Assembly (NCBI GenBank): GCA_051294905.1
Contig: CM119371.1
Span: 20,338,001 to 20,402,000 of the forward strand
Reading direction: 5' to 3'
From: Botryllus schlosseri
Taxonomy: Eukaryota
Length of the DNA: 64,000 nt
Position 1 is the first letter of the stretch. Each line of letters opens with the position of its first letter. Under the pieces are notes generated by a model. The model was not told where the DNA came from. It searched no databases and saw nothing but the letters and a program-made list of their open reading frames with translations. Of the stretch, positions 1 through 23,500 are shown one piece after another. The translations under genes and the position numbers were made by a program.

Positions 1-1293
1 GAAGAATGTAAAGCCCGTGTGCTGGCAAATGCCGAGCGTTGTCGTGACCCTGTCGGTGGATTAGAAATTAAATTAGCGCATTTTGATCACATTCATTACG
101 ATACGGAAAATGGAGCTTTGAGATTTCCTGGGCCACCGCTGATGATCAAGGGTCACGGTAGGAGTGAAATGCGTGGCATACAGTCTTCCAAACGTACTAA
201 ATCTCGAAAGAAAAGGTTCTTGTTTTTTGCATTAATAATGGTTTTTTCGTCAATTTTTACATTAACTGCCGCATCAACATTACAGAGTGAGTTTAATGCT
301 AGGACGAAAGATCTTACTGACCAGTTGAACACTAGGTTTACATTGTTAGAGAGTGATCTTAAGGAAGTGGCCGACAAAGTTAACCAACTCGCAGCGGTAA
401 CGGTGTCCCAGGGTCAAAATCTAAATCAAGTAATCATAGGAATGTTAGAACATGAGCGAACGCGCGACGCCCAACTTGAGGCCATTATTGCCCAAGTTCA
501 TGAAAACAAGAATATGATAATAGCTCAAGCAGACTTGTATTTTTCTACTATTCAAACTGTGCACTCTATGACGATCGCAGAAGTGGCTGTAAATGATTTG
601 ATTATTTCAAAGTTACAAAATAGCACGGGAAAAGCTATTTTTGATTCAACCAAAGCTTATTTAGTGCGAATTAAAAATGGACTAATACATTTGAAAGAGC
701 ATGGCCAATTGATAACCGCGTATCAGTTGGATTATCGGAATTTTTCTAATCATCAAGGTCAAATTTTAAAGGCGGCGCGTGAAAAATTGAATGACACCAT
801 GGCAGAGACTGAATATAGGGTTAAGGTTTACCAACAAGGGGTGAATAGCACCTTAGTTTTGAACACTACCGAGTTTAGCCACGATAACATAACCTTCATT
901 TCCTTGAACGGCTCGATAGGAAAAGAACTATTCCAAGATATAGGATATGGCATAAAAACTGTAGCTGAGGGCACCGGCCATGTGATTAGTGAAATTTTGC
1001 AAGATACGGGAACTCTAATTAAGACAGGTGTCGATGGAGTTGGAGATATGATTGGTACCGGGCTAGGATCTATTTTTGGGGGATTAGGAAAATTTCTAAT
1101 TCCGATTGGCATAGTATTGGGTGCATTAATAATAATTTATTGTCTGATAAAATTCTCCCCAGGTTGTAAAAGTCGAAAAACTACGATAGCTGAAAGGAAT
1201 AATCATACTGAAATGGCTACTTTTGTCACAACCGTTGTACCACGCCGAAATATCGTTAAAAAAGTAGTGCGGCGATCTGAGTATAATGTATAA
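1..1293 (+). CDS. env: Envelope/fusion glycoprotein, class I-like (probably 5'-partial)
   Basis: Frame is open from base 1. Furin-type site RKKR (205-216) is followed by a hydrophobic segment FLFFALIMVFSSIFTLTAAS, long heptad-like helices (LTDQLNTRFTLLESDLKEVADKVNQL...), N-glycosylation sequons (NST, NFS, NDT, NTT, NIT, NGS), a Gly-rich membrane-proximal region, a TM helix FLIPIGIVLGALIIIYCLI and a basic cytoplasmic tail. Confidence 0.75.
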   Translation, partial: EECKARVLANAERCRDPVGGLEIKLAHFDHIHYDTENGALRFPGPPLMIKGHGRSEMRGIQSSKRTKSRKKRFLFFALIMVFSSIFTLTAASTLQSEFNARTKDLTDQLNTRFTLLESDLKEVADKVNQLAAVTVSQGQNLNQVIIGMLEHERTRDAQLEAIIAQVHENKNMIIAQADLYFSTIQTVHSMTIAEVAVNDLIISKLQNSTGKAIFDSTKAYLVRIKNGLIHLKEHGQLITAYQLDYRNFSNHQGQILKAAREKLNDTMAETEYRVKVYQQGVNSTLVLNTTEFSHDNITFISLNGSIGKELFQDIGYGIKTVAEGTGHVISEILQDTGTLIKTGVDGVGDMIGTGLGSIFGGLGKFLIPIGIVLGALIIIYCLIKFSPGCKSRKTTIAERNNHTEMATFVTTVVPRRNIVKKVVRRSEYNV

Positions 1294-1371
1294 ATTTTGT
1301 GCGATCTTACTTATAGTTGCAAATATTTAGAAATAGACTTAACCTATACATATTGTATTGAGGATATCATT

Positions 1372-3513
1372 ATGAAGCCAAGTGTCTGTCTTAATTTCGG
1401 GATGTGTTTCGTAACATGTGCCCTGTTCGCGCGGGGTGAAAAAGATAATTGGACATTGGCTGACTTGAAGATTCAACCAATCACGAGGCTGAATTACGAC
1501 CTATGGATAAATACTACGACGCGGTTGTCGGAACGAATAGCTCTGCAAGATTTGTTCCAATTGCCGAAGCTTGAGGGATCCTTGAATTCAACAAAATGGG
1601 AATCAAGACGATATGGTATGATTTCATCGAAAAATCGTACAATTAGCGAAAATCTCCAACCCCGTGGTAAATACTGGACCGATCCTGTAGCGTTAGAGCA
1701 ACAATGTCTGTGTGTTCGATCATTGGCTTTGGTTAGGCCGAGTTTGCAATACAGTAATCTATTCAAAAATGTCACCTATCATAGGAAACCACAATCCGAT
1801 TTAAGACATATGTTAGTTTGGGCGGAAACACCTGATTCATTAAGGCGGAATAATAATTTAAATGTATATAATGGCGTTATGACAATTTATAAATTTCTGC
1901 TCATTAAGTTACTACAGCGGCATTTGGTTGTTCAGGCCTCTTGTGAAAACACTGATGAGAATGATTTGGCTGGATCCACAGATTTCCCGATGAATATATT
2001 AAGAGAGTGTATACGAAGGCGTTACCGAGTAACGGTGTGTATATCTTGTGCTTTTTCCGGTTATCAGCAAATATTAGAACCGATCCCTAGAGGTTTCTTA
2101 ATTCAAGAATTTGACGATACCTTGGATAAGTTTTTATCTCGTGATACCACTGAGACAAATAACTTAGAGAGTCGATACCAATGGGCCGCGTCGGAGAATT
2201 ATTGGCCTTTGAAAGGAACCCGACCGATATTTGATGAAAATATTCGCTGGATTAAAGCGACGGTGAGACACACTGGGCGGGTTTATCGTGATGGTGACAT
2301 TAGGTTGCAATCTGGTAAGTTACCAGTCTATTCGTCGTTTCCGTCTATGCTACATGGGGACGGGTTCTGTAGAAATAGGACTCGGATAGTTGAGTGTGGA
2401 AATGTGTTCGTTGGAGTGAGGGCTAAAATCGCATTGCGTAACCATGTGAGATACGATCCGGCCCACAATAAGTCGGTATTCGCTGATATGAATGATGGGA
2501 TAATATTAGGTCGCCCTATAGAAGGCAAGGTTAAACGATCCATGGAAGTGAATAATACCTTTTTGATATTACCACCGGATCATTTGGGATTAACTTTTCA
2601 ACAATACTTGGACAATATGACTAATCAATTACTTGTTGCTATTCAACAAAATCTCGATCAATTAGCTGGACCAATCAGCAAAACCGGATTGCTAATCGAT
2701 AATCAGAGGGGAAAAAATGTTTCGAATCTACAGATACATTCTTATAGTGAAATAGTAAGTGAATATGAACGGCGATCCCAAGACATAGCGAGGTTGAATG
2801 ATTGTTTTATACAAAAAATGATATTAAAATTGTTGGGAAAAATGGATAAGAGGTTTGCAAGTTGGTATATTTCTGGAATGTGGTATGCAGCGTCATGGGA
2901 CAATGCGAACCTTATAGTCACACCGGTGGGTTATTATTCTCGCGATTTTGAACCAGCAACAATGTTAGAGCGAGTTATAAGAACTGGCGAAAAGTTGCCG
3001 GAATTGGGTGGTAATGGATCACGTGAAATGATACTAACTAGAACAACAGTTCGACCTACTATGAATTCTCAGGAGGCCACCAGAATAACTACAAGTATTG
3101 ACATTGGACTTCACGACCCTAGAACAACGGACATTTCTCTGGACACTGCAGAACCCGAGAACTCGCTGGAAACCGAAGTTGCCTTTCGGACTGACCTGGA
3201 TCCCAAAATAACATTAAAGCAGAGGTTGGAGAATTTATCGCGCGATGAACAAAATTATACGCGTAAAGGTTATAATGCACCGATATTGACCTTTAAAAAG
3301 ATTATGACATTGCTCGTCACTACAGAACCTGGAATAATTGCCGTAGTGGTAGGATTATTGGTGATATCGGGAATAATTATTGGCTATATTAATTACCGAT
3401 GCGTGAAAAAACAAGTAAAATACCGAATTGCCAAACGAAATAGAGATCATTGGATTACTATGATGCCAAGAAATGAGGATTTAGAGGATAATGATAATCC
3501 GTGGTACGACTAG
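1372..3513 (+). CDS. Second type I membrane glycoprotein (~713 aa), possibly class III fusogen-like (GP64/gB-like)
   Basis: First ATG at 1372 gives a signal-peptide-like MKPSVCLNFGMCFVTCALFARG. More than 10 N-x-S/T sequons, several Cys, C-terminal TM GIIAVVVGLLVISGIIIGYI and a basic tail. Segment RLNDCFIQKMILKLLGKMDKRF...NLIVTP loosely recalls the GP64/gB central-helix region (by eye). Confidence 0.7.
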   Translation: MKPSVCLNFGMCFVTCALFARGEKDNWTLADLKIQPITRLNYDLWINTTTRLSERIALQDLFQLPKLEGSLNSTKWESRRYGMISSKNRTISENLQPRGKYWTDPVALEQQCLCVRSLALVRPSLQYSNLFKNVTYHRKPQSDLRHMLVWAETPDSLRRNNNLNVYNGVMTIYKFLLIKLLQRHLVVQASCENTDENDLAGSTDFPMNILRECIRRRYRVTVCISCAFSGYQQILEPIPRGFLIQEFDDTLDKFLSRDTTETNNLESRYQWAASENYWPLKGTRPIFDENIRWIKATVRHTGRVYRDGDIRLQSGKLPVYSSFPSMLHGDGFCRNRTRIVECGNVFVGVRAKIALRNHVRYDPAHNKSVFADMNDGIILGRPIEGKVKRSMEVNNTFLILPPDHLGLTFQQYLDNMTNQLLVAIQQNLDQLAGPISKTGLLIDNQRGKNVSNLQIHSYSEIVSEYERRSQDIARLNDCFIQKMILKLLGKMDKRFASWYISGMWYAASWDNANLIVTPVGYYSRDFEPATMLERVIRTGEKLPELGGNGSREMILTRTTVRPTMNSQEATRITTSIDIGLHDPRTTDISLDTAEPENSLETEVAFRTDLDPKITLKQRLENLSRDEQNYTRKGYNAPILTFKKIMTLLVTTEPGIIAVVVGLLVISGIIIGYINYRCVKKQVKYRIAKRNRDHWITMMPRNEDLEDNDNPWYD

Positions 3514-4196
3514 TAAGGTTTTAAATTCAACAACAAGGAAAATAATTTCAATCAATATTGTGTAACTAGAGAAATCAGAATGTGAGAATATTGGATGTCA
3601 TATTTAATTGTGTAGGGTTAGCCTGTAAATTTAGTTCGTTGATTTTAAAATTCGTTGCTGTCTTGCACAATGACCATATGGTCGTTTTGATGGACGGAAA
3701 TGACCGGATATGGGTAGCATGAATAAGATATTCCAGGAAAATTTATGACGTTAGTTGATCACGACAATCGTTGAATCGGGCTCGATTATTAGATTAGGAG
3801 AGGGTTTAAAAAAACCGGAATCGGGTCATCATATTTTAACGGATATGGGCAAGCTGGGGTTTACGGATACCATATGTTGGGGTCTAACGTTGAATTGGTG
3901 GCACTCTGACGTATAAGTTTCCGATCTTAACTATCCTATGATGCTCGTTTCTTTTGGGCAAGGCGTGAGGCCTATTTCCGGTTGCCACTAGAAGAGAAAA
4001 TGATATATAGGATACATCGAAATATGGTTTAAGTCAAATAGATCGTGAGGGTCACGAGTGAAGGTTAGCGTAGTTAGGGTGATTGGGAATTTAAGAATAA
4101 ATGACCAATAACTATTAATGCTTATATCTGATTGTAGTGGCAGAGGAATTGCGAGAAATTAATTAATAGTTCTTAGTCGAGGCGGATCGGTTTAAG

Positions 4197-4883
4197 ATGG
4201 AAGGAATGAATTTGGAAATGATGAATGTTTATAGGAATCTACATGGGAATTGCCTTGCGCAATGTGGCTGCCTGGGATATTGTCCTCAGTTTTTCTGTAC
4301 CGAAGCCAAATTAACGTCGGCGCAGATAACCTGTCAATGGCAAACAATATTAAATAGTCGAGCATACCTTCAGATAAAAAATAAGAGTACGAGAATGAAA
4401 GATTATCTTCACTATTTTATATCAAAAAATTCAGATTTCACGAAACCACTTTTTGGCACTGATTACAGAGTGGAACGATGGTCTAGGAAATATAATGTGG
4501 CGCATTTCGTGGGATGTGAACTAGATCCGTTTAAGAATACGGGACTTTCGGACGAAATGTGGGAGGAGATCTATTGTATTCCATATTTGGGCAATGATTT
4601 GTGGATTACACGCATAATTGGAATATGTGCGAAAATGTTCCATAAATGTTTTAGGGAGCTTCTGCGTAGCATTTTCCCTGCCATGCCAAATCCAGAAGAG
4701 GGAATTAAAGATTTTATAATTTGGGTTTTGTACCCGGAAGCGATAATATTTGGACTGTCTAGTAATGAGGAGGGTGTTTTGGAGGAGAAAAGCATGTTAA
4801 TTTCGGAAACACATTATTTGGCTTGTCGTGATAAGAAGGCATTTAGTCTGAGGAGTTACTGTGATCGCTTTACCGGATTGTAA
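4197..4883 (+). CDS. Accessory protein 1, PWWP3A/MUM1 C-terminal-domain-like
   Basis: 228-aa intact ORF. Motif IKDFIIWVLYPEAIIFGLS...SETHYL (PEAII at 4734) is shared with the next two ORFs. Confidence 0.65.
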   Translation: MEGMNLEMMNVYRNLHGNCLAQCGCLGYCPQFFCTEAKLTSAQITCQWQTILNSRAYLQIKNKSTRMKDYLHYFISKNSDFTKPLFGTDYRVERWSRKYNVAHFVGCELDPFKNTGLSDEMWEEIYCIPYLGNDLWITRIIGICAKMFHKCFRELLRSIFPAMPNPEEGIKDFIIWVLYPEAIIFGLSSNEEGVLEEKSMLISETHYLACRDKKAFSLRSYCDRFTGL

Positions 4884-5039
4884 GATGATTGAAATTGAGA
4901 CCGTGATATCATGATAAGATGATGGTGTTGATCCTTGGTGTAACAAACAAAACAGAGAACTTGATATTAATAAATTGTGGTTTCCGTTAAGACGATATTA
5001 AAGTAATTTTGATATAAATAATAGGCTTCCTTACCAGCG

Positions 5040-5954
5040 ATGTGCGGCAATGGAATCTATTGTAATGAAGTCCACAGTACCAATTTTAGAAGAGAAAACG
5101 TGTTTTCAGTAATATGTGAGTGTGAAATGGTGGCAATCTTTATTGAAAGAAATACCACTGTAGATTGGGTAGCCACCATTTTGAGTCAAAACCAGCATTT
5201 GGGTATGAAGCATTTCAATAATCATCCAGGTCACCCCAATATTGACGCGTGGATACAGCGATATCGTAGAGAATATTTTCACTATTCAGACCAGCGGGAC
5301 CGTGTGTATACCGTTTTGGACGTAGCTTTGAGCTCCTATTTACGAAGTACCAATCAAGCTATGATCCCCAAAAGAAAGACAAAATTGATTCGCGGAGTTT
5401 TGGTCCCAGAGAAGGTTATATCGGCCATATCTGTCATAGACCGTGTTACATTGGCTAGCGCGGAATATAAATATTTGACATCGAACCTAGTCATTTTAGA
5501 AATTGCCTCCGAGCTTCTATGCGCCAATGATAATCACGCGGGTAGGAACTCGCAGGCCGAAATTGAGGGAGACGAAAGTAATGTATGGTCGGTAACTGAG
5601 GAGTCTATGGAAGCTACCACGACAGGAACAGCTGATGAGAGGGAACTTTATCTTCATCCAATAAAAAGGGAGGAATCGCCGTTAGTGGTCGGAGGCTCAG
5701 AATGTGAAGAGGACAACATGGATATCACAATTACACGCGTGGTGTCCCTTGCTCACCAACAGGAAGTCCGGGGGAAAAGGCGCGGATCTCGTCGAAGGCG
5801 ATTTTGGTGGAATCATGAACGGAATGTTGGACAACACCGTAGTCATGATCGATGTGCTCGGACCAGTCGATACGACGTCAGTCAGAACAGGTCGGAATTA
5901 GAGTTTGGGGAAGCGGGAAGTAGTAAATCGAGAATGGGATACTACCCTTATTGA
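5040..5954 (+). CDS. Accessory protein 2, PWWP3A/MUM1 C-terminal-domain-like, with acidic and Arg-rich (NLS-like) tail
   Basis: 304-aa ORF. YFHYSDQRDRVYTVL...KLIRGVLVPEKVISAISVIDRVTLASAEYKYL; tail has RGKRRGSRRRR. A pyrimidine tract plus CAG (cttccttaccag, ending 5037) lies just before the ATG. Confidence 0.7.
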   Translation: MCGNGIYCNEVHSTNFRRENVFSVICECEMVAIFIERNTTVDWVATILSQNQHLGMKHFNNHPGHPNIDAWIQRYRREYFHYSDQRDRVYTVLDVALSSYLRSTNQAMIPKRKTKLIRGVLVPEKVISAISVIDRVTLASAEYKYLTSNLVILEIASELLCANDNHAGRNSQAEIEGDESNVWSVTEESMEATTTGTADERELYLHPIKREESPLVVGGSECEEDNMDITITRVVSLAHQQEVRGKRRGSRRRRFWWNHERNVGQHRSHDRCARTSRYDVSQNRSELEFGEAGSSKSRMGYYPY

Positions 5955-6875
5955 AAAGTAGTTTTGACGTTAATGGCCGTAAGAACAGTCAGCCAAATGT
6001 ATGGTTTGGTGACAGACATGGAGTAGGCGTTGTATCATTGGAAATTTCATTTAGAGGTGTTTATTATATTAGAAGTGAAGTACGGATTTATTTTATTAGA
6101 TGTGGGTGGTGATTTAAGCATAATTACGAGATATGTAATTCTTTATATTATTTTAGATGTGTAATTTTACGAAAGGCGTTTAACCGATCCTTGCGCGGTT
6201 AAGGGTATTTCCTAATATTATTGATGGATGATATAGTATAATTAAATTTAATATTATTATGGTGGGCTTGACAATAGTGTTTCGAGTAATTTCAAAAAGA
6301 ATAGATGTAGGCTACCTTTTCCAAAGGTCATAGTGGAGCAGTAATAAGCAATTGAATATTACGAGAAATTATGTAATGGTTTAATGCGTAAGGCAGGAGT
6401 GGTTATATGATTGAAAGACTATGACATGGTTCGTATCGACGGCTTTGTAAATATTGTGAAATTAAAGTCGTATATGAGGATTATACCGGAAGGAATAAGG
6501 AAGTTATTAGATGATGGATAGAGGGATTTAAACTTATGGCCCTATGGCGTAGTTATCTAATTCATTAAATACTGTGTAAAATCTTAATAATCGAACGGCC
6601 CTAACAGTAGATAGTATGTCATGTAATTTACACGAAATGAGGTCATAAAATTGGAATTTTGTGAGTTATTACCCTTCAAAACAATGCCCGGCTGATCCAT
6701 ATGAAGCCATGTAATTGTGACCCTGACCCTTCATTAGTGTTTAGAACTGGACCTAGAACGTCAAAAATACTCATTTGTAATAGGCTCATGTGGTTATGTG
6801 TGATGTATAAATATTGTTTTAATTGAAATTTTATGGTTATGTATGATGTGATACAGTTTATGATATATTGGTTTA

Positions 6876-7466
6876 ATGCTCACGTGTAAGATACATTTAC
6901 CAGTTAATGTTGTTAAAGCATGCGCCATGTGCAAAGCGTTGTATTGCGAGTTTTCACGAACTGTTCATGCGGCTTGGTCTCCGACTGAAGAAGAATTTAT
7001 GGAGCAGGCCAAGAAAGAAATAGAATTTTTGACATCATCAGCCGAACCGCTGGTACACTTATGCGAAGTCCTTACCAACCAACTCCATCCCAGAGTAATG
7101 TGCGTCCTTGGAGACTTATGGGAGATATATTTCGACGATTATGAAGGTTTTTCATTGAAATACGTCCCTGAATATTATTGTTTCCATGGGTTGAAAGACG
7201 AAATCGGCAAATTTCTTGCGCACGTGGTGGACTGGATGTGCATAATCGACCCAGAAATCCCGCAACTGTGGCATGGTGATGAACAATTAAAAATCAAAGT
7301 GATTTATGATCTACTGTTGCCAGAAGCTATCATATTTTGCCATTCAAAATGTATGGGAATATCATTGGCTGATGCGGAAAACCATTATCTTAGAGATGGA
7401 AAGAATCAGTTGATTGCGGGTGGATGGAAGACTGCGAAGGGTAAACTGAATGATCCAGCCAGGTGA
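6876..7466 (+). CDS. Accessory protein 3, PWWP3A/MUM1 C-terminal-domain-like
   Basis: 196-aa ORF. KIKVIYDLLLPEAIIFCHSKCMGISLADAENHYL (PEAII at 7320); N-terminal CxxC...C. Confidence 0.65.
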   Translation: MLTCKIHLPVNVVKACAMCKALYCEFSRTVHAAWSPTEEEFMEQAKKEIEFLTSSAEPLVHLCEVLTNQLHPRVMCVLGDLWEIYFDDYEGFSLKYVPEYYCFHGLKDEIGKFLAHVVDWMCIIDPEIPQLWHGDEQLKIKVIYDLLLPEAIIFCHSKCMGISLADAENHYLRDGKNQLIAGGWKTAKGKLNDPAR

Positions 7467-8252
7467 GCTACGGGTTATTCGATGAAAGACAAAAAAGAGA
7501 CTGAATTATTGTATTATGTTCGGCATCAGGCGTTGTCTCAACCCGAAATGATTGGACAATATTGTTGATGAGTGGGTGCTCGCATGAGCATATGGCGTGC
7601 TTTAACATTTTATGTAATCGATTTAATTAGATTGTCCGATGGAGAGTGCTGATAATAAGTTTGAATTATTGGAGTGGTATAGTTAGATTTTATGTATATC
7701 AAGGAATTTGTTAGAGAGTGCTTATGGGCGGAAATTTTCAATATTGCTTTTGAAATATGTGTTTGTATTATGTTCTTGGAGATATTCCGTATGCATATAT
7801 ATTTGCGTATTGATTTAAATGAGAGTCGCGGATTGTTTATATATAATGGTATAGGACGTAATGGTAGCGTAATTCATATATGTACTTATCTTATCAGGTT
7901 GAAACAGAGGTTATAATTAACGATAAAAGGTTATAACGTTTTGTATTGTGGGTAGAATGACCCTAGAAGGTTGAATCATTTAGATATTTAGTGTACGGGA
8001 TGCTAAATATAGATGTTTTGCTTTCTAGTCCCCAAAAAATGGTGAATAAAATCACGCCCAACCCTATTTAGGTTACATGATTGTGTAGATATGTGGAGTA
8101 ATTATTTCATTTTTTTTTGGATCAATGTATATTGAAAATTGTGTGATTTTGTGTGAATTATTTAGTATGCGTTGTAACTAGTCCACGCCCCAGCGACTAG
8201 AACCCCTACACTTGAGTGAGGCTGGACGGTGATAAAACCAAGACAAGTTGCT

Positions 8253-8260
8253 GGGGAGAA
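8253..8260 (+). promoter_or_regulatory. Polypurine tract (plus-strand priming site)
   Basis: GGGGAGAA followed by C and then TGT (8262), a typical gypsy PPT/LTR junction. Confidence 0.55.
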
Positions 8261-8261
8261 C

Positions 8262-8774
8262 TGTCATAAAATTAGATAAGTAACACCCTAGTATACTCGA
8301 GATTATACAAATACACAAAAACCTTGATCAGCCTTAAACGATAAAATGAAGATGTAACAAGCCCTTCACCAGAATGCTTTGGCCCTAGGTCAATTATGAA
8401 TACATGAAATAGACTATAGGATATGTGGAGATGCTATTGAAATATGGTCTTGATCGCATATGTGTTGAATTGCATGATTTTAGAAGACTAAGTAACAGTT
8501 GGATGCATTTTACGAATGATTGTTGCTATGGTAACATTGCTACTTGAATGTAAAGTCTAATATTGGAGTATTTGGTTGTATTAAGGTACCAAGGTCAAGT
8601 GCGTACAAATATGTTAGCTAAGACTGGACCCTAAGGTCATTGAAAGTTCAAGACACTTCGAAGGCTGCGCCACCTGCAACAGTGATTCACCAAAATTGGA
8701 TTACAAGCAAAAGAACCAGGCAAACACAATATCTTCCTACTAACAAGATTGGAGGCAAGATATTTCTACAAACA
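8262..8774 (+). repeat. Putative single LTR (~513 bp), TGT...ACA
   Basis: Starts TGTCATAAA directly after the PPT and ends TACAAACA two bases before the PBS. Inferred from boundary signals only, as there is no second copy in the window. Confidence 0.55.
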
Positions 8775-8776
8775 TT

Positions 8777-8786
8777 TGGAGGCACC
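8777..8786 (+). promoter_or_regulatory. Primer binding site, tRNA-Thr type
   Basis: CA-TT-TGGAGGCACC is complementary to the 3' end (...GGTGCCTCCA) of eukaryotic tRNA-Thr(AGT) as recalled. It lies ~240 bp upstream of gag. Confidence 0.7.
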
Positions 8787-8833
8787 CTGAGGAATTGTAT
8801 TTCAAGGCGCCTGGTAATCATTGTTCTTGCTGG

Positions 8834-8998
8834 ATGATTTCGTCTTCAGAGGCTACTGGACGGCCACGATCAAGCAGCCGGATCGCAATTTTTATTAGCG
8901 TTTGCAGTATAATAGCGTTCTCGGTCGCTTGCTACGTCATAAAGTCATTGGACCATGCGCAATTCATAATGACGGCGAATGTGTCAAATATTCAGTAA
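8834..8998 (+). CDS. Leader uORF, 54-aa putative single-pass membrane peptide
   Basis: ATG at 8834. Basic residues, then the hydrophobic stretch IAIFISVCSIIAFSVACYVI, then an NVS sequon. Lies between PBS and gag. Confidence 0.3.
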   Translation: MISSSEATGRPRSSSRIAIFISVCSIIAFSVACYVIKSLDHAQFIMTANVSNIQ

Positions 8999-9022
8999 AT
9001 AGGGGGTGATTCTAAAGCAATT

Positions 9023-11413
9023 ATGAGTTTTTTTTGGCAGAAAAAGAAAAAAAATGACGCTTCTGCACTACAAAAGAATATTGCATTGATGAAAAACACT
9101 CAGCAGCGACATCTCGCGACTCAAACTAGAAAAGACCATTTAGTATCGGAGGTTCAGGACCAAGCAAAACTTTTGAAGGAGGTAAAATCTATGCTACCTA
9201 AAACTGTTAAAGATTTGAAACAGGCTAGAAAAGATGTCAAACAGGCGGAAATTGATTTGAACGCGGTACAAAAGGCCACCGAAAAAGCCTGCACCAAGAT
9301 ATCCGCTGAAACGCTGGACCAGGTTTTGAGTAGACAATTTCAAGCGGGGGTGGATTTTGAAAAAACGGAGGGAGTGTCAAAAATACTTTCTATGCCTACA
9401 TTGGCGAACCCAAGACCGTCCGCTCCACCGCCGGATTATCGTGCAACTCAAACCATTCCGGTATTTACGAAGGCTTTGCTTCCAAGTTCTAGTGATTCCA
9501 CGCTACCAAAAAAAATTCTGAAGCAACCCGGGGCAGCGCCGACTATAACAAATCCTAGTGTTATGCAAATGTCATCATTTCCCGTGGGAGTGGCTGGATT
9601 AGATGTGATTCCAGACCACCATGTCATCAGAGGATCAATTATTGGACCACCGGATTCGGAAGGCGTGCCACGATTGCTAGCATCGCAACGTTCACGTTTA
9701 ATTGCGAAGCCGTTATTCACCCCACAAAACACACAGCGCCAAGGGCGGATTGTGGTGCCCCGGCCAGGGAAAAGAACCAGAGTTACCTGGTACGATGATG
9801 ATAAGGGGGACGAGGGTGATAATGAGGACGATGACGCAGAGTCTGATCTTATTGACCTGGATGACCATAGTAGTGATTCGGGTCAGAGTCATGTTGATGT
9901 ACCAAATACGAAGCCCATGACGATGCAAGAAATTTTAGCCATCATGAAATCGCCCGGAAGTATGCCTCTGTTGCGATTTATCGAGGATATACTTAGATGT
10001 GTACCACACGGCGATGGTGATACGATAGCGGACCGAATCTTGGCCAACGCTATACAGCATAAATTAATCATGGCAAAGAGATCGGATGAGGCGGAGCAAT
10101 TGGCAGATATACTTAGCGTTGACAATCCAAAGTGGCAAGACGCTTTGGAAATATTGTCATTGGCCAACCCAATTGAGACGTGTAATAAGGATGCGTTGAT
10201 TCGTGAATTTGCCGAGTCATTCAATTGGACAAAGACACCTATATTGGAAATTCATCGAGTTCTCAGAAAGATGGACCTGCCCCTCGATCAGATAGTAATG
10301 GGCGACCCAGATGGTATTAGACTCTTTCGAAATCTGAGGTCACTATTGCCCCCCACCCTGAGAACCCTGCTACAGGGCTATGAATTTTTGTCATGGCAAA
10401 AAATCGCCAAATTGTTGCAGGAATTTTGGAATAGTGAGAAAATGGATCGTCAAGCCGCGATAAAACCGTACGCAACTCCGGCATCTTATCCAGTGCATAA
10501 GCAAATACCGACAGCCGTTAATACACCGAATTCCGTGTCTTATCCGGTAGCCACGCCCACGCCAGTGACGATATATAATTGTCAAACTCCGAGAGATATG
10601 CCGTGCTGCCCTACTAGGAGCTCGGAAGGCGTGAGAAGTCAAACGCTGTATCAAGGAGCTGGGGTCGCTTACACGGTGGAACCCACACGGCGGAATCCTG
10701 AACGACAAGCAAAGAAGAATCGTTTTCAGCTGAATCGGAATCAGCCAACCTTGAGAGGTAGGACCGATGTGCCTAGCGATAAAAGAGACTCCACTCCAGC
10801 GGACAGTTATGAAGCAAGAAGAATAGCTCAAGAACAAGGTAGATCTTATAATTTTCTTGAGAACCCAAACGTCTTTGAAAAGCTTGGATTGTATACGCAT
10901 CCTTCTAATGGCCAGAAGTTAATGGTGTGTTACCTATGTAAAAGTATAGGGCATTCTGTCAGCCAATGTTTATGCAAAGTAATCCTCTGGATTAACCAAC
11001 TAGTACTTACTAAAGATGAGGAGGGTGAATGGATTGTCCGCCCTCGCTCGAAACCCCTTCCAAGCCCATTGTTTGAAGAAGTAAAATCTAAGTGGGAATC
11101 TTTCCTCCGAGGTGAAAATCCGGAGGGCAGAAAGCTAATGACAATCCAAGATTTAAACCAATATTTCGCTGATCAGGGGTCCCCCAGTTTGCAAGAGAGA
11201 GCGCGGTTATGCGAATTGTATTTTGACGAGCGCCCAAAACGACGTGATCCATTAAATTGGCAACATAGACCAATTTTTGAACCGCCAAATATCGAGGCGC
11301 CAATGGCTAGTGCTAATCCTGTGGTTTGTCGTCCAAATGTCGTCCAACGGCCCTTTCCTCATTGGTCGGATTCAGAATTGTTAACTGGGGTGAATTTGTC
11401 AAAAAACGGTTAG
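9023..11413 (+). CDS. gag: Gag-like polyprotein (796 aa)
   Basis: Basic N-terminus (MSFFWQKKKK), coiled-coil, PSAPPPDY late-domain motif (9416-9439), acidic linker, helical CA-like region, and zinc knuckle CYLCKSIGHSVSQC (10928-10969). Overlaps pol in the -1 frame. Confidence 0.85.
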   Translation: MSFFWQKKKKNDASALQKNIALMKNTQQRHLATQTRKDHLVSEVQDQAKLLKEVKSMLPKTVKDLKQARKDVKQAEIDLNAVQKATEKACTKISAETLDQVLSRQFQAGVDFEKTEGVSKILSMPTLANPRPSAPPPDYRATQTIPVFTKALLPSSSDSTLPKKILKQPGAAPTITNPSVMQMSSFPVGVAGLDVIPDHHVIRGSIIGPPDSEGVPRLLASQRSRLIAKPLFTPQNTQRQGRIVVPRPGKRTRVTWYDDDKGDEGDNEDDDAESDLIDLDDHSSDSGQSHVDVPNTKPMTMQEILAIMKSPGSMPLLRFIEDILRCVPHGDGDTIADRILANAIQHKLIMAKRSDEAEQLADILSVDNPKWQDALEILSLANPIETCNKDALIREFAESFNWTKTPILEIHRVLRKMDLPLDQIVMGDPDGIRLFRNLRSLLPPTLRTLLQGYEFLSWQKIAKLLQEFWNSEKMDRQAAIKPYATPASYPVHKQIPTAVNTPNSVSYPVATPTPVTIYNCQTPRDMPCCPTRSSEGVRSQTLYQGAGVAYTVEPTRRNPERQAKKNRFQLNRNQPTLRGRTDVPSDKRDSTPADSYEARRIAQEQGRSYNFLENPNVFEKLGLYTHPSNGQKLMVCYLCKSIGHSVSQCLCKVILWINQLVLTKDEEGEWIVRPRSKPLPSPLFEEVKSKWESFLRGENPEGRKLMTIQDLNQYFADQGSPSLQERARLCELYFDERPKRRDPLNWQHRPIFEPPNIEAPMASANPVVCRPNVVQRPFPHWSDSELLTGVNLSKNG

Positions 11414-14400
11414 CTACACTGGCTCATTTTGTGAACCAGTGTGCAGACGAACTATTACCACATAGAACCGCGAGAATAATAAATAATTTGTCATTGCCGT
11501 TATTTAGTATGTTCGGGGAAATTAAAGATTCTGATGATTGTAATTTCGCAAAGCTTTTTGGGGGTGAATTGATGTACCTAGTCGATATGAACACTAATGT
11601 AAATTTTTTAGCAGACACAGGAAGCGTGCCAAATTTGATGATGTCGTCGACGGCGAAATTGGTTTATCCCTATAGTTGGCGAAGGCGGTGTTCATTGCGT
11701 ATGAATTTACAAGGTATAGGTGGGTCGTCACAGGTTGAGTCATTAATATATATAGAAATTGATGGGGTTTCAATTCCTTTTGCGTGTGGTAATGTCCCGT
11801 TAAATATTATCGGATATCATTGGATAGACAAGGTTATATCGCTGCCTTCAATTGATGCGGTGTTAAAAAGCCCGTCAATTGCAAGTCACGAGCTGGCTCA
11901 GTCCGAAATAGGTGTTCCGTGTTCATTGTCGACATATGCCGTGATAGAATATGATGACGAAGGGCGGGAAATAAAAACTTTGGCCAAACAAAGAAATAAC
12001 GTGAAGAACAGCAATCGCGAAGCTGTTTCGGATGTTAGGTCGTTAGAAATTGGAAAGTCGCACCCGTGCCAATTTAATAGTGACAGCGCTGTTAGTATAT
12101 GCGCTGAAAATATTGGTGAAATGCAGGCACGAAATTTGGTCACATTCGGTGTAAAATGTGAGTGCGACGGGTTGAAAAGTTTTAGGGCGCAAGATCTTTT
12201 CAATCCAATAGGCCCCGAAGTGGATGTTGACGTAAGCGTACCGAAGCATCAAAAATCTCATAGTGGAGAGTTATTTGCCTCGTTTCTAACGACAAATAAA
12301 AGGCCAAAATATTTCCCGCGAAAAGTATTCGATGGTCCAATAACGGAATATGTGTTGCAAAATGAATCGGATATAGAGGTTAGATTGGAATTGGAAGAAC
12401 TTCGTAAGCAATCCGTATTGCTGTCAAAAACGCCATTCCAACAGCCCGATCTAAATGACGACGCCAATGCTATTATAGACGAAAAAACATGGAGAGCGGT
12501 GTATGAGCCGTTCGCCGCGGAATTAGAAGATCTCGTCGGGCATCTACAGGGAAAGCAGGCCATGATGTATCCATGTAAAATAGAACTAAAAGATGAGTCG
12601 ACTACTCCTTTTGTGTCTTCGCCTTATAATTTAAGGGGTAAAGAACAATCGACTGCTTTGGAAGAAGCAATTGACAAATTTTTGCATCTTGGTATTGCAG
12701 AAGTTGGGTTTGCGGATTGGATGTTGCCTATATTTGTGGTTCCGCAAAAGGTGAACAGCGCCCAAATGAAATCTGGGGGCTGGACCCAGAAATGGCGTGT
12801 AGTGCAGAATTTACAGCCGTTAAACTCGAAAATCCGAATAATGGAAATAAATATGCCTTTAGTAAGCGATATGAAGCAATTGGCTCAAGGTTGCGAAGTC
12901 CTCTCATTGATCGATTTACAGAAGGCTTATTTTCATATTGACGTGGCCGAAGAATCAAGACATTTCCTGGGTATTGCGGTAAAAGGGCATTATATAAGAT
13001 ATCGGAAATTACCCATGGGGCTAATATTTAGCGGGGCTTTATTTACTATTAACATTTTAGAGGGGGTTATACAACCAGTTCTTAAAAAATATAAGGCTTA
13101 TATGGAATCCCAAGGTAGAAAGGACGAATTACTTTCAAACCCAATTGAGGCTTATATTGACGATATCTTTTTATGTACAAAAAATGTGAATGATCATTTA
13201 TTCCTTCTTAAAATTGTATTCGAGCAACTTGCACTAATGAAATTGACAGTCAGTGTACATAAGTGTTATTTTGGTAAACGAAAAATCGAACTGCTGGGTT
13301 CTACAATAACCGGCCGCAATATTGAAATCCAACCTCAACGCTTGTTTGCGTTGAAAACTATGGCACCCCCAAGAAATATTTACGAATTGCGTGGGTGGAT
13401 AGGATCTATACGGTATATTTCTGATCACGTACCAAAACTAAGCGTAAAACTAGCGAACTTTGATTCGCTCACGGGCAATGTGCCTGCGACGAGGGCAAAA
13501 TTAACGCCCGTATTTTGGACAAGGCAACTTTTAGAAGATTTTAAAATAATCCAGCATAGTCTTGATGATCCTCAGATTTTGTTTCATTTTGATCCCAAAT
13601 TGCCATTGTTCGTGGAAACTGATGCTTCAGACGTTGGGTTTGGGGCAGTAATGTTCCAAACAGAACTGGGAGCCACACACCCTTTCGACACGGTGTATCC
13701 TCTTGCGTATTATAGCCATAAGTGGGTCACTTCTACCGCGCGGGCGTATAACGCTTGTACTAAAGAATTGAAGGCACTTCGTGATTCGGTTGAAAAATGG
13801 CAAACTACCTTACGATGTACTCCTTTTACAATAATCACAGATAACGCTGGAGTATATGGACTACTTCAGAGGATGACCAGCCGGGGAAAGCATCCTAGCC
13901 CTGATCTGTTATTACAACGATGGTTGAGTTATTTGTCCGGTTTTCAGATAAAACGAGTTATTAATTTGAAAACAGATGAAGTGTTCACATCGGATGGTCT
14001 GTCTCGATCTTATTGGATGCAGTTCGCGGCGGACGACCAAGACCCAGGCGTGTGGACGGTGGTCGCTGATAATCAAGGGGGCGATACAACTGGGGGTGAA
14101 GTGAGTTCAAAAAAAATTGCAGAAAAAATATGTCGACGGGTACTACAACATTGTAGGCATGAGTCTTGTAAATATGTGCAAAATGGCTACCACCCATGGA
14201 AACAAGTTCAATTAATATTGCTTGAAAGTCTCGACATCAATTTTCCGATTGACGAATTGAAAAAGGTGTTATTAAATTGCAGACGTGCAATTTTAAACGA
14301 GACGGGGGTAGCAGCGGCACATGGGCATACTCTTGGACAGACGCCTAAATATGATGAATATGAAGGTAACGACGCTTTATTCCACATAACTAAACAAGAA

Positions 14401-14625
14401 AATTTGAAGTCCATAATACAGGGCGAATTAAAATCAATGAATCGCCGCTATATACATTTCACAAATAGGCGTGCTGAGATTAAAGATAGACATCGACAGA
14501 AGGTGGTGAGCGCACAACCTCAAGTATTGCGAAGATTGGGATATCATTTTTGGCAATCACCGAACCCGGAAGTTATTTTGTGTAAAGAATCGATCCCAGG
14601 GGTATTATTAAGAGTGGAGGAATGA
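11326..14625 (+). CDS. pol: Pol polyprotein: aspartic protease, reverse transcriptase, RNase H; no integrase DDE core recognised
   Basis: FLADTGS (DTG 11614-11622); RT motifs WRVVQNLQPLN, LIDLQKAYFHI, LPMGL, YIDD (13153-13164), LLG; RNase H VETDASDVGFGAV, KELKAL, IITDN, SDGLSR. About 200 aa follow without a D,D(35)E pattern. Confidence 0.92.
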   Translation: MSSKCRPTALSSLVGFRIVNWGEFVKKRLATLAHFVNQCADELLPHRTARIINNLSLPLFSMFGEIKDSDDCNFAKLFGGELMYLVDMNTNVNFLADTGSVPNLMMSSTAKLVYPYSWRRRCSLRMNLQGIGGSSQVESLIYIEIDGVSIPFACGNVPLNIIGYHWIDKVISLPSIDAVLKSPSIASHELAQSEIGVPCSLSTYAVIEYDDEGREIKTLAKQRNNVKNSNREAVSDVRSLEIGKSHPCQFNSDSAVSICAENIGEMQARNLVTFGVKCECDGLKSFRAQDLFNPIGPEVDVDVSVPKHQKSHSGELFASFLTTNKRPKYFPRKVFDGPITEYVLQNESDIEVRLELEELRKQSVLLSKTPFQQPDLNDDANAIIDEKTWRAVYEPFAAELEDLVGHLQGKQAMMYPCKIELKDESTTPFVSSPYNLRGKEQSTALEEAIDKFLHLGIAEVGFADWMLPIFVVPQKVNSAQMKSGGWTQKWRVVQNLQPLNSKIRIMEINMPLVSDMKQLAQGCEVLSLIDLQKAYFHIDVAEESRHFLGIAVKGHYIRYRKLPMGLIFSGALFTINILEGVIQPVLKKYKAYMESQGRKDELLSNPIEAYIDDIFLCTKNVNDHLFLLKIVFEQLALMKLTVSVHKCYFGKRKIELLGSTITGRNIEIQPQRLFALKTMAPPRNIYELRGWIGSIRYISDHVPKLSVKLANFDSLTGNVPATRAKLTPVFWTRQLLEDFKIIQHSLDDPQILFHFDPKLPLFVETDASDVGFGAVMFQTELGATHPFDTVYPLAYYSHKWVTSTARAYNACTKELKALRDSVEKWQTTLRCTPFTIITDNAGVYGLLQRMTSRGKHPSPDLLLQRWLSYLSGFQIKRVINLKTDEVFTSDGLSRSYWMQFAADDQDPGVWTVVADNQGGDTTGGEVSSKKIAEKICRRVLQHCRHESCKYVQNGYHPWKQVQLILLESLDINFPIDELKKVLLNCRRAILNETGVAAAHGHTLGQTPKYDEYEGNDALFHITKQENLKSIIQGELKSMNRRYIHFTNRRAEIKDRHRQKVVSAQPQVLRRLGYHFWQSPNPEVILCKESIPGVLLRVEE
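11401..11444 (+). promoter_or_regulatory. -1 programmed ribosomal frameshift signal (gag-pol)
   Basis: Slippery heptamer A AAA AAC (11401-11407) is in the correct gag phase, with a single codon (GGT) between it and the gag TAG. A hairpin follows: ACACTGG (11416-11422) pairs with CCAGTGT (11436-11442), with extra GC/GC and TCA/TGA pairs. pol is in the -1 frame. Confidence 0.8.
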
Positions 14626-17600
14626 AATAAGGTGATATTTACTTAGTAGAAAATGGCCTGAGAATTAATAAAGTAAATAATCGCAAGATGAAGCCTTGGT
14701 TGTTGTCATTATATACCAGGCTACAGTTTAATTGGTTTAAAGGCGGGTGTATAATATAGTTATCGGTGAGCCACATGTTTCAGATTTGAAGAATGAAAAT
14801 TGATGTAATCCTAAAAAGCTAATATTCGGTGGATCGTTTCTCTGAAATAGCGGGAAGATTGCCGGAAAGAATACCCATAAGGCCTGTGATTAACAGTCGG
14901 AAATATGAGTCATATGAGGCTTCGGTCATACGATCATTTGTATGGTATTGTCGTCATGGGCTAGAGTGTGCACCATGACAACAGATATGCGGGCGGAAAA
15001 TGCGCATGCTCCTATGTCCTTGGCCTTGCATTTCTACGAGTTACGTTGCTTCGTGCATCAGCCCCACACATTGCATAAGTTATTATTGTTTCCATCCAGA
15101 AACTTGCTTGTTGTATGTATATTTCTCAGATATAAAGGTAATATTGATGTAACACTTATTATCGATATCTCTCACTGCAAATTGCAAGTACGATGAAAGT
15201 TGCGAAAAGTTATCACAAAAGTGGTATCGGATATTATCTTGTTTCAACTGATACCAACGTTGGGAATACATTTTCACAAAATGGACCTATTACTATGTTG
15301 AATGTCATCAGGATAATGGGATATATTCCGTTATGATCATGAACTTGCTGGAAAAATCAGGATAGCTAAAGGTTGTACCATAGGGAAGCCCCGCTGTATG
15401 TTGCTGATTGTAAATGTTTCGCACAATTACTGGGGTGGCATGAAAATCAGTCACCAAACAAATACGAAAGGAGGAATGTGACTTTAGAAAACTGCAACGT
15501 GGAAGATTCTGGAGATCTTATCTCATAATATGGTGACATTCAGCTGTGGATTCACAGACTGCATCTCAAGGCAGGGAGCAAATGATGCACTGCGAATGAT
15601 ATTGGGCGCCTTTAATTTTGTGAACTACAGACACTGCTCAACGAAAATGCCTTGCTAGATCACTAGGTTACTCTCCAGTCTCCAATTACAGTGCAGATGG
15701 CTGTTTTTTATGCACTTGGCAATCATTTTTGCATGTTACCCGTCATATTACAACTTTGCAAGGTGTCAGCTGTCTGTGTTTTGGTTTGTAGTCAATAGTG
15801 TCTTCTGGTTAGAGCTATCGAAAGATATCGGGGGCAAAACTTAGAACACTCCGGAAAACTCCGGATAAATATCTGCTGTAAACTCCGAGCCCACTCCGAG
15901 TATCACAAAATTGGCAAAACTCCGCTCCGGAAACACTCCGACTCCGCTCCGATGCTCATCACTGGTGCTTGAAGGGTCAGGTCTTTATAAGAACCCTCCA
16001 GCACTCCTATGCAAAATACAGCATATTTTATGTGATTGAAAAATGCTTGATCGCAGGAGTTTTTTTTAGAGTATGGCACAAATGACCCATGAGGTCCCAG
16101 TTTGTCGAAGATGTGCGAATCCACATGTTTGTTTTGATGTTTTTGCCTGATGGTTTGGAAAAAAAAGCTTCAAAGCTCTCAAGGAGAATAGTCATATTAG
16201 AGCTCGCTGACTTATGATAGGCTGCTCCAACTTGTGCTTAGTTATTTTCTTTCAATTTTCCATTTTCTGTGTTTCGAGTAAATGAGAGGAGCAGAGAAAG
16301 TCAAGATGCCGTGTGTTCGGCTTTTTAGCGCAATCCATCTTGAAAGTTCATAACAGTTCAATAACCATGTAGCAGCGGTTGTTAAACTTTTTAAACAGCG
16401 ACAAAATTCTGAGGCTTAGTGACATCACGCGACCCAAGCCTTTCACATCAGAAATAATGCATTTTTATCATTAGCATGCTACCATTTTACGGGCATGTGA
16501 GACGCAGAGAACCCGCATACACTATTTATAAGAAATACAGCTCTACGAAACATGTCTGATACACGCGATTTCAAATTGGAGAGATTTACACGCCTCTGTG
16601 CGACGCATTTGTACTACTGTCTAGTCAGATTGCAAGGACGGGATTATTCGGTGCTGACTGACTGCCAAGCAGCGACGGTAATTGTAGGCCGAGGTTTTGT
16701 TACTGCTGATCTTTCTGCCACCGCACTTTCCCAGCAGTAGGTTGGCCAAACCTTCACATCTTAATGTGTCCCGACGACCTCGACCTCAAAAGAAATTAGT
16801 CTCATTGGCCCGCACCCGCTCGTTGTACACCCATACACTGAAGAATCGCAGAGGTCTTAGACGGTGTTTTCTAGAGAAATCAGTTGGACAGTCGTGAATT
16901 CAAACTAATTTATGTAACGCAAATGTTGGGACATTTTCATGGTCAAGCCATATTTTCTGCATGTCTCGCATATTGGCTATCGTTCCCTCCACATTTAATT
17001 TTTCAAAAACTACCACAAGTCGTTACGACACCTTCCTATCTTTTCATTGTCTCGCAGTTTTATGGTGATTTGAAATGATGATAATATTATTAAACTGATT
17101 CAGTGACCTTGAGTATAAAAAAACTAACCACGTGCAATCGCGCCCAGCGCGAAGGAATTTGTCGCAACAAATTTAACGAATATTATATACATCATAAAGG
17201 GGCACTGCACTCTAAAGTCTAAATACGATGTGGTCTCAAATTAAACATGAAATCGGGAAAATGTTTTTGTCCGAGGCCATTTTCTTGGGAAAGCCACCGT
17301 GATGGAGAGGTAGCTAAATGAAAATTCAAACTATCCTCATTCCTCGCTATTTGAATTAATAGTCATCAATAGTGGCGCGGCTGCGAGTCTACGGCTGCTT
17401 AACCCCTGCTTAATCTCCACTTGCACTTGCTCGACGCGGCCACCATATTCTATTCACTTCATTTCTTTAAGTCAGTGGTTTTCAACGTTTTTGTCTTAGC
17501 AGAACCGTTTTGGACCGTCATGGACCCCCGCGGACCCCAAAAGGTTTAGTTCAATTTTAGCTCTATCACCGTGCAACCGTCGTCGTCTGTCCTGAAATGT

Positions 17601-22763: not shown

Positions 22764-22949
22764 TGAATACTAATTAAAAAATAAAAAATAAAGAGCGAAA
22801 AATTACATTTTATCCCGGGACGTAACAAGAAAAATCGTATGAATTTGTAAACTACTTATTCGGTAAACTACTCTTTACTTCACAAAACAAAGTTACAAAA
22901 GTAAGCAGATTTATATGAAAACCCGTTAATTAGAAGTAAAAGTAATAAC

Positions 22950-23500
22950 AATGCATCATACCACATTTGATCACAATTTCATGATACAATACCTTTAAAA
23001 CTAACGCAGTTCTCTACACACTTTTGCGTAAATCTGTGTTTCGCTAGCGTAGCACGTACCTATACATAGTAAGCTTCAATAACGGAATTACCATGCTAAT
23101 AATCAAATCCTCACCCTGAAACTTGGTACGCGGTTATAGGACATTATGAAAATACAACATACCAAAATTTCGTCAGACATTTCATGATGTAACACCTTTA
23201 AAACCAACGCAGTTCTATGCCGACTTTTGGCTAAATCTGTTATCCATAGCGCAGCACGTACCTATACATAGTCACCTTTAAAACGGAATTACCGTGTTAA
23301 TAATCGGCTCCTCACCTTGAAACTCGGTACGCAGTTGTAATACATTATGACAATGTACCATGTAAAATTTTGTTACGCATTTCATGATTGAACAACTTGA
23401 AAACTAACGCAGTTCTATACCGACATTTGCGTGAAACTGTTTTGCGGGAGCTTAGCACATACCTATGCGTAGTCAACTTTAATGACGGAATTACAGATGT
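22950..23500 (-). repeat. About three further units of the ~200-bp repeat, in reverse orientation, in the spacer
   Basis: Reverse-complement cores (ATACCAAA..TCAGACATTTCATGAT) near 22960, 23160 and 23360. Confidence 0.8.

Follow-up and report, generated by a model that had tools for sequence, protein, structure and literature searches.

A stretch of 64,000 nucleotides of the Botryllus schlosseri genome (hereafter the window; CM119371.1, C1:20338001-20402000 of a 495-Mb assembly) holds all but the first 2,715 bp of a mobile element that carries gag, pol and envelope genes of retroviral type together with a transposase gene. On balance, with a probability that we put at about 0.6, this is a retrovirus-like mobile element in which a Merlin/IS1595 cut-and-paste transposase replaces the integrase and inverted ends replace the long terminal repeats (LTRs). 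The combination of retrovirus-like genes with a Merlin-type transposase was found described nowhere in the full-text literature searched. As judged from sequence, integration by the element's own transposase is well supported because the corresponding gene is intact and the most constrained of all, the element has terminal inverted repeats (TIRs), 8-bp target-site duplications (TSDs) and an empty site, and the transposase is linked to pol across a whole family. We further infer that the integrated DNA would be made by reverse transcriptase (RT), because gag and the protease (PR), RT and RNase H (RH) parts of pol are intact and under selection in every subfamily.

In the proposed mechanism, the element would be transcribed, its mRNAs would receive a host-like 5' end from a leader identical to the host spliced leader and followed by a splice donor, Gag and Gag-Pol would assemble particles, and RT-RNase H would copy the element RNA into DNA. 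The transposase, rather than an rve integrase, would then recognize the inverted ends and insert this DNA with an 8-bp stagger. The glycoproteins could allow spread from cell to cell or from organism to organism, and a Tpt1 domain fused to pol might take a 2'-phosphate off the RNA intermediate, or modify it otherwise.

Retroelements fall into classes according to how their DNA enters the genome, with rve integrases in LTR elements and retroviruses, tyrosine recombinases in DIRS elements, and endonucleases in long interspersed elements and Penelope. If the above reading is true, a further class defined by its integration enzyme would have to be added, and the element would represent a natural experiment in integrase replacement. 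It raises the questions of how ends are regenerated without LTRs, what a 2'-phosphotransferase does on an RT protein and why a host spliced leader is carried, and a family that is young, abundant and largely intact is accessible to experiment.

Ends of the element and its transposase

The element spans 17,780 bp, from L012:7286 (L012 being the stretch upstream, with L012:10000 adjoining window base 1) to window position 15065, both ends being defined by a copy on C15 with different flanks and by an empty paralogous site. The unit 1..14978 delimited in the original prediction was thus short on either side. The features that define the ends, and the first gene, are as follows.

L012:7278-7285 and 15066..15073: perfect 8-bp target-site duplication, ACACATTG
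L012:7286-7300: 5' terminal inverted repeat, reading GGAGCTTGTGCACGA
15051..15065, + strand: 3' terminal inverted repeat, reading …TCGTGCATCAGCCCC, matching the 5' end at 12/15 positions in register
Outer ends as read: 5' GGAGCTTG… and 3' …CATCAGCCCC
L012:7679-8641, co-oriented: transposase, DDE_Tnp_IS1595 (Merlin-type), intact open reading frame (ORF) of 320 codons, the first gene and outside the window

A single unbroken alignment of 17,823 columns, with 95.3% identity, joins the window copy to the one on C15, and the sequences flanking the two are unrelated. The copies on C13 and C16 share the 3' terminal base of the window copy, where all four therefore end, and a genome search through the termini found these four copies only of the window element's subfamily. 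The C15 copy has a target duplication of its own, GGCTTGAG, and 8-bp duplications were seen at three insertions in all (the window copy, the C15 copy and the D-type element introduced below). In the empty site, a paralogous repeat with 100% identity at C1:21108768-21109280, the sequences from either side of the window copy run together and overlap by 8 bp. No LTRs or long direct repeats were found by self-BLAST of the element, and none of at least 40 nt is present in window positions 1-15065. GC skew is positive throughout 1-16000 and about zero past ~16000. The insertion target of the window copy (15066-15300 and L012:7000-7285) is an abundant dispersed repeat, with at least 40 matches for each flank at 88-100% identity.

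The transposase matches the Pfam domain DDE_Tnp_IS1595 with an E-value of 2.3e-16 (60.6 bits, cut-off 27). Its D153/D222/E262 residues and N-terminal Cys4 motif are invariant in 5/5 family members, and the atlas clusters nearest to it in a sequence-feature comparison are eukaryotic ISXO2-like transposases (score 0.97). With a ratio of replacement to silent substitution rates (dN/dS) of 0.08, it is also the most conserved coding segment of the element. Possession of this gene means that the element is not integrase-less. The claim that there is no integrase therefore stands in its narrow sense, since neither rve (PF00665) nor a tyrosine recombinase (Phage_integrase-type) matched any of 72 stop-to-stop ORFs of at least 60 aa from six frames of the whole element (sets of 7, 3 and 62), and falls in its wider one, the enzyme being encoded just upstream of the window. 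Merlin transposons duplicate 8-9 bp of their target, and Merlin/IS1595 (IS1016) elements resemble the present one in having a DDE_Tnp_IS1595 transposase with an N-terminal Cys4 motif, TIRs and an 8-bp TSD. However, Merlins are small, single-gene elements, whereas members of the present family measure from 17.8 to >31 kb and have gag, RT, env and accessory genes besides. According to PMC4202319, DDE_Tnp_IS1595 belongs to Merlin DNA transposons with TIRs, the transposase coding sequence of which is ~880 bp long.

Retrovirus-like genes and the selection acting on them

Seven co-oriented ORFs lie on the + strand of the window (1-1293, 1294-3513, 4170-4883, 5025-5954, 6864-7466, 8999-11413 and 11317-14625). 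The last two correspond to gag and pol, with the following parts.

8999..11413, + strand: gag, ATG at 9023
11401..11442, + strand: putative -1 ribosomal frameshift site, A_AAA_AAC plus stem ACACTGG/CCAGTGT, read from the sequence
11317..14625, + strand: pol, in the -1 frame, PR-RT-RNase H-Tpt1/KptA-like
11614-11625, + strand: pol protease motif DTGS
~12784-13308, + strand: pol RT, RVT_1 (E 2.2e-18), YIDD at 13153-13164
~13516-13944, + strand: pol RNase H, RT_RNaseH_2 (E 4.5e-18) and RT_RNaseH (E 5.5e-16)
~14128-14622, + strand: pol Tpt1/KptA-like domain, PTS_2-RNA PF01885 (E 3e-7, 31.1 bits against a cut-off of 26)
14667..14672, + strand: AATAAA, 42 nt after the pol stop

The gag gene described in the original prediction, with a late domain and a CCHC motif, was recovered as such (PSAP at 9416-9427, PPPDY at 9425-9439 and a CCHC knuckle at 10928-10969). 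Its product has no match in Pfam and no sequence match in the Protein Data Bank (PDB), and its nearest atlas neighbours, at 0.89-0.92, are zf-CCHC, Retrotrans_gag and PNMA clusters, which provides a lead only. The frameshifted PR-RT-RH pol was likewise borne out by the heptamer and the DTGS, RVT_1 and RNase H matches listed above, the slippery heptamer (11401-11407) lying 6 nt before the gag stop and a 7-bp stem 9 nt downstream.

The C-terminus of pol is formed by a Tpt1/KptA RNA 2'-phosphotransferase domain in which, judging by the alignments, the catalytic tetrad is kept. A profile built from seven family members matched solved Tpt1 structures over both lobes (E 1e-14), and the positions of the tetrad are invariant in all seven (R-H at 14155-14160, R at 14284-14286 and R at 14443-14445), as are the HxT and GH[ST] motifs. 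Tpt1/KptA enzymes, which remove a 2'-phosphate from RNA in an NAD-dependent reaction, are marked by a fold of two lobes, an Arg-His-Arg-Arg tetrad and the NAD-binding motifs HxT and R..[VI]H, and the sequence of the domain agrees with this pattern. By counting, the invariant Arg118 and Arg171 of the profile fall opposite Arg64 and Arg119 of chain 7kw8_A. On the N-terminal side of the aligned part stands an invariant R75-H76 pair, where the first two residues of the tetrad are expected. The likeness to Tpt1/KptA thus extends to both lobes and to these four positions, and the difference is that in the element this domain forms the tail of a retroelement pol. In textbooks, Tpt1 acts on the 2'-phosphate that a tRNA ligase leaves behind at the junction. 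The same fusion is found in two database proteins, P0001 and P0002, and in a metagenome contig, L033.

Upstream of gag are the envelope and accessory genes, all on the + strand.

1..1293: env1, its C-terminal 430 codons, open at the window start; fusion-type glycoprotein
1372..3513: env2, a paralogue of env1, with a C-terminal transmembrane (TM) anchor at 3334-3390
4170..4883: accessory ORF 1, no Pfam match
5025..5954: accessory ORF 2, PWP3A-B_C-like domain (PF20886, E 6.8e-9, above cut-off)
6864..7466: accessory ORF 3, PWP3A-B_C-like domain (PF20886, E 5.2e-6, 26.9 bits against a cut-off of 27)

Two glycoproteins and three accessory ORFs in one orientation had been recognized before, and this holds except that the window covers only the C-terminal 430 of the ~797 codons of the first glycoprotein. 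Its frame is continuous with L012:8897-10000 and starts at L012:8939, with one in-frame TAA in the window copy (L012:9632-9634). Whole env1 is a putative cleavable glycoprotein of the fusion type: it begins with a signal peptide, the basic cleavage site RKKR|F stands before a hydrophobic stretch (205-258), and a TM segment lies at 1099-1149. An AlphaFold2 model shows long helices of moderate confidence, at 448-541 and 593-636. Structure comparison of the full model returned only generic helical-hairpin matches (Z up to 8.1; VIA-align, wide) and no Foldseek match at E up to 0.001 in PDB or BFVD. The paralogous env2 has neither a furin site nor a fusion-peptide-like segment, and its relatives contain long Ser/Thr-rich inserts. 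Both proteins align over a common Cys-rich N-terminal domain of ~300 residues and match no Pfam family; word search found one relative of env2, and exhaustive search with an env profile 52 proteins among 1.84 billion representatives. The predicted structure of this N-terminal domain (predicted local distance difference test score 90.3, predicted template modelling score 0.88) had a best Z of 3.6 (VIA-align), no Foldseek match at E up to 0.001 and no solved relative; rows of the SGNH/haemagglutinin-esterase type were weak (Z about 3) and serve as a lead only. As modelled, the glycoproteins have a fold without known relatives. Accessory ORF 1 is weakly similar to accessory ORF 3 around a PEAIIF motif (E 0.003).

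Selection was measured between the window copy and the C15 copy over nine coding segments, all of which gave a dN/dS of 0.08-0.32. Apart from the transposase, the values are:

env1, N-terminal piece: 0.09
env1, C-terminal piece: 0.15
env2: 0.28
accessory ORF 1: 0.13
accessory ORF 2: 0.22
accessory ORF 3: 0.32
gag: 0.24
pol: 0.17

Replacement changes are everywhere far fewer than silent ones, and most of the divergence must therefore have arisen in replicating lineages that needed all genes. The dS of accessory ORFs 1 and 2 (window 4170-5954) is 0.28-0.30, ~3x that of the other segments (0.07-0.12), which suggests recombination between element lineages. The close copies on C15, C13 and C16 show 94-97% amino-acid identity in pol, with a frame change near the C-terminus of env1 in the C15 copy and a gag broken by nested inserts of 20.6 kb and 24.7 kb in the C13 and C16 copies, respectively. 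The C13 insert (L017-L020 joined, 12277-32931, at window ~10236) is bounded by perfect TIRs (52 bp or longer) with a 6-bp duplication, GGTGTC, and is apparently a giant DNA transposon of another kind.

A family with permuted gene orders

A genome search with the part of pol from RT to the C-terminus scored at least 69 loci out of 1,308 first-look candidates, and 61/69 of the matches are without a stop codon. A co-oriented transposase match lies within -50 to +10 kb of 58/69 pol loci, 25 of which have two. The family is young, abundant and largely intact in the B. schlosseri genome. In 7/69 loci the DDE gene is found 2.0 kb downstream of where the pol match starts, right after pol and before env1-env2. 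The original prediction had named a DDE integrase between pol and env in a full-length copy as the finding that would speak against it, and in spirit the sister subfamilies have just that; the enzyme, however, is not an rve integrase.

Four types can be told apart by gene order and sequence. In the A type, to which the window copy belongs, the order is transposase-env1-env2-accessory ORFs (three)-gag-pol. The D type, represented by a complete element of 24,662 bp nested in the C16 copy (8-bp TSD GATGTTTG, TIR matching at 17/22 positions in register), has the same order, transposase-env1-env2-small ORFs-gag-pol, at about 40-55% protein identity. In the B (C1:8.88 Mb) and C (C1:24.29 Mb) types the order is …accessory-gag-pol-transposase-env1-env2, the transposase ORF beginning within a few dozen nucleotides of the pol stop and the 3' end coming right after env2. 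Gene order is hence circularly identical in all types and only the position of the ends shifts. The C type has five copies with 90-96% identity over the downstream part, and these set its 3' end, together with many deleted derivatives, at one common base. The A and D types share a subterminal 3' motif, and a similar sequence is present near the 3' end of the C type.

C-type elements reach >10 kb further upstream, with extra co-oriented ORFs, and a search for the 5' ends of the B and C types did not find them. In one stretch upstream of gag (L029:4442-9691, C1:24281385-24286634) there are two more PWP3-like ORFs, an acidic Asp/Ser-rich ORF and an ORF for a leucine-rich repeat (LRR) TM protein with a signal peptide, the last of which looks like captured host-type cargo. 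Dozens of internally deleted C-type derivatives (L028:4675-5991; L030-L032), 82-89% identical, keep parts of pol, the C-terminus of env2 and the exact 3' terminus, and their deletion joints are not of the GT..AG type. An apparent 5' terminus in 2-kb C-type derivatives was ruled out since longer copies place that sequence inside pol.

Outside this genome, relatives are scarce. Among 5.8 billion proteins, pol was matched over its length only by P0001 (42% identity) and P0002 (37%), each with a Tpt1-like tail, and the other matches are all Ty3/gypsy-like, at 21-27% identity. A second metagenome scan yielded a 4.8-kb contig, L033, with gag(CCHC)-PR-RT-RH-Tpt1 at 52% identity; it ends 77 nt after pol and is therefore uninformative on the transposase. 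The first metagenome scan and one scan of viral contigs found no relatives. In a quick maximum-likelihood tree of RT-RH, with 82 of 91 rows kept (matched span of 300-650 aa) and no curated reference sequences, nine Tpt1-bearing sequences form one group (Shimodaira-Hasegawa-like approximate likelihood-ratio test, SH-aLRT, 100) on a branch of ~2 substitutions per site from the 73 others. The idea of an undescribed lineage far from known families is upheld by that branch and by the mere two proteins at 37% identity or more. The solved structures closest to RT-RH by sequence are about equal, namely the 'Enzymatic polyprotein' 8r0s_A (E 1.3e-15), foamy-virus Pr125Pol (~1e-12) and Ty3 (5e-12).

Like Ty3/gypsy and the env-bearing Metaviridae (errantivirus-like), the element has a CCHC gag, a -1 frameshift into PR-RT-RH, a PF17917/PF17919 RNase H after RT and an env. 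Unlike them, it lacks LTRs and rve and has TIRs, 8-bp TSDs, a separate DDE_Tnp_IS1595 transposase and a Tpt1 domain in pol, and its RT-RH is set apart from Ty3/gypsy by low identity (~21-27%) and the long branch with SH-aLRT 100. A full-text literature search, with subscription journals and Repbase outside it, found no description of an element with RT and a Merlin/IS1595 transposase, nor of a Tpt1-RT fusion.

Leader, intermediates and competing explanations

Between the accessory ORFs and gag lies a short sequence that the element shares with host transcripts.

8562..8595, + strand: leader identical to the host spliced leader, then a GT donor, ~430 nt upstream of the gag ATG
Same leader elsewhere: L015:5130; L027:6388; L026:3526-3556 (- strand); L023:9129

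In 117 reads of X23 and 13 of X21, a tail that we take to be that of the template-switch oligo stands directly before 8562 and is followed by a match from 8562 to ~8591-8593 and then by diverse sequences. The same leader thus begins many different RNAs at their capped 5' ends, which makes it a spliced leader and means that the host trans-splices; in 37 X23 reads it is joined to position 15128 in the flanking repeat. The donor context within the element (…CCAAG|GTCAAGT) is consensus, and all four types (A to D) share the first 24 nt of the leader plus GT (26 nt) without a difference, between diverged flanks. This would be consistent with the leader being the element's own leader and major splice donor, providing its mRNAs with a host-like 5' end. 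The leader was also considered as a spliced-leader RNA gene and rejected, the four-type consensus folding at -2.15 kcal/mol with no covarying pair and no Rfam family. No ribozyme or other known RNA was found either, with 0 Rfam matches at E up to 1 in window 1-17000 and L012 6500-10000. Contigs from X10 and X19, which we guess to be RNA, cover pieces of gag and pol. One mismatch-free X19 contig (RNA again guessed) joins 10836 to 13839, skipping 3,002 nt with GT..AG ends; by frame count, this joint could fuse gag in frame with the Tpt1-bearing C-terminus of pol, and it is reported as a lead. Eleven RNA reads of X21 leave the element at 15065 and enter flanking sequence that matches none of the four copies in the assembly, which suggests an insertion absent from the assembly and recent activity.

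Several observations weigh against the preferred reading. Bulk RNA reads (X23, ~6% of the run) show almost no depth inside the element, the 31-nt leader excepted, and neither an RNA nor a DNA intermediate was seen. The TIRs are short and imperfect, and when the 120-nt arms of the A copy were aligned locally without a fixed register, the score did not exceed that of shuffles, 66/500 of which reached it. TATA-like boxes are found ~300 nt inside the 5' end and the AATAAA ~400 nt before the 3' end, and since both are internal a plain transcript of an integrated copy would lack both termini, which could not be restored without anything LTR-like. Some family members apparently exceed 31-40 kb and have two transposase genes and cargo genes, a size that is large for an RNA to be packaged and an appearance closer to that of a DNA transposon. 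Internally deleted derivatives with a common 3' terminus are abundant, and DNA transposons and retroviruses alike yield such derivatives.

Much of this would be expected of a giant DNA transposon of the Merlin superfamily that has captured a gag-pol-env module and moves as DNA only, by cut-and-paste, the main rival explanation, which we regard as rather unlikely. The retroviral genes would then serve otherwise, for example in particles for horizontal transfer, or belong to a co-travelling virus. The TIRs, the 8-bp TSDs, a strongly constrained transposase and the promoter-like and poly(A) signals inside the termini fit this scenario, as do the apparent size of >31-40 kb in some relatives, their two DDE genes and their cargo, for example the LRR-TM protein, and the many internally deleted derivatives that retain the 3' terminus. 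Comparable to this is Teratorn, a piggyBac-herpesvirus fusion (PMC10175614) in which virus-like genes and a cut-and-paste DDE transposase likewise form one giant mobile unit, although Teratorn is ~180 kb and joins a DNA virus to piggyBac, while the present element joins reverse-transcribing genes to a Merlin-type enzyme. Against transposition as DNA alone speaks the finding that gag, pol, env1 and env2 have stayed intact, with purifying selection evident when copies are compared (dN/dS 0.09-0.28), that gag, pol and env are retained in every subfamily examined, and that 61/69 pol matches are open, since an RT useless for propagation should decay. Moreover, no transposase-only member of the DDE clade beside env was seen, though 17/99 of the DDE matches listed have no pol match in range.

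If the element is indeed a retrovirus-like one with a transposase for an integrase, loss of the termini from its transcript might be circumvented by joining the ends. A joined-ends intermediate is pointed to, in what can be read from the sequence, by the permuted gene orders, the mid-element position of the leader upstream of gag (in the A and D types) and the Tpt1 domain. The bolder proposal, which we consider improbable, is that of a new order of RT elements or viruses with a circular intermediate. Here, a reaction of the tRNA-ligase type would close or join the RNA and leave a 2'-phosphate where its ends meet, Tpt1 would remove this phosphate, and RT would copy across the junction, regenerating abutted inverted ends without LTRs for a Merlin-type transposase to insert. 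Permuted gene orders and a cis-encoded leader mimic would be traces of such a cycle. Circular junction reads, which the original prediction had proposed to look for, were not found, no read joining the 3' end (15065) to the 5' end at a depth far too low to speak against a circle and with a mapped stretch that does not include the 5' end. A parallel exists in DIRS/Ngaro/VIPER elements (PMC6681497), which also combine a gypsy-like RT-RH with a non-rve recombinase, lack the canonical LTR and integrase and have had circular intermediates proposed for them, but encode a tyrosine recombinase and a methyltransferase where the present element has a DDE transposase, 8-bp TSDs, PR, env and Tpt1.

The original prediction held that this may be an endogenized copy of an enveloped virus, possibly with a pararetrovirus-like lifestyle. 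If such a virus, integrase-less and episomal, had entered the genome by accident, the lack of rve and tyrosine recombinase in the 72 ORFs, the best RT-RH structure match (8r0s_A, slightly ahead of foamy virus and Ty3) and the circularly permuted gene order between subfamilies would all be in accord with it. Caulimoviridae and Hepadnaviridae similarly have RT-RH without rve, and it is an 'Enzymatic polyprotein' chain that gives the best PDB sequence match. However, both families persist as episomes and lack an enzyme for integration, whereas the element encodes one and its copies are flanked by TSDs. The element's own DDE transposase, its TIRs, the identical ends of four integrated copies, the perfect 8-bp TSDs with an empty site and the at least 69 related pol loci of 1,308 candidates already contradict an episome, which has become very unlikely. 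That the transposase-env block and gag-pol are two nested or adjacent elements, or an assembly chimera, is hardly credible even where nested insertions are common (the gag inserts of C13 and C16), being contradicted by the same collinear 17.8 kb at two loci with different flanks, the same order in a 24.7-kb relative at about 40-55% protein identity, the lack of internal ends, a uniformly positive GC skew and purifying selection on every segment, so that the env/accessory block and gag-pol are one element, as first supposed.

The surroundings of the element show a few further features. Within the window, positions 19016-28079 contain two 2,360-bp arms of a 100% complementary inverted repeat, which enclose arrays of a ~200-bp satellite and an ORF of the Bcl-2 family (24096-24728; Pfam PF00452 on its relatives), and the latter, by its sequence, would fit an animal host. 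Some 17 kb upstream of the window, an 836-codon ORF with C2H2-like and Cys-rich motifs (L011:998-3508, - strand) probably encodes a transposase-like protein of an unrelated element.

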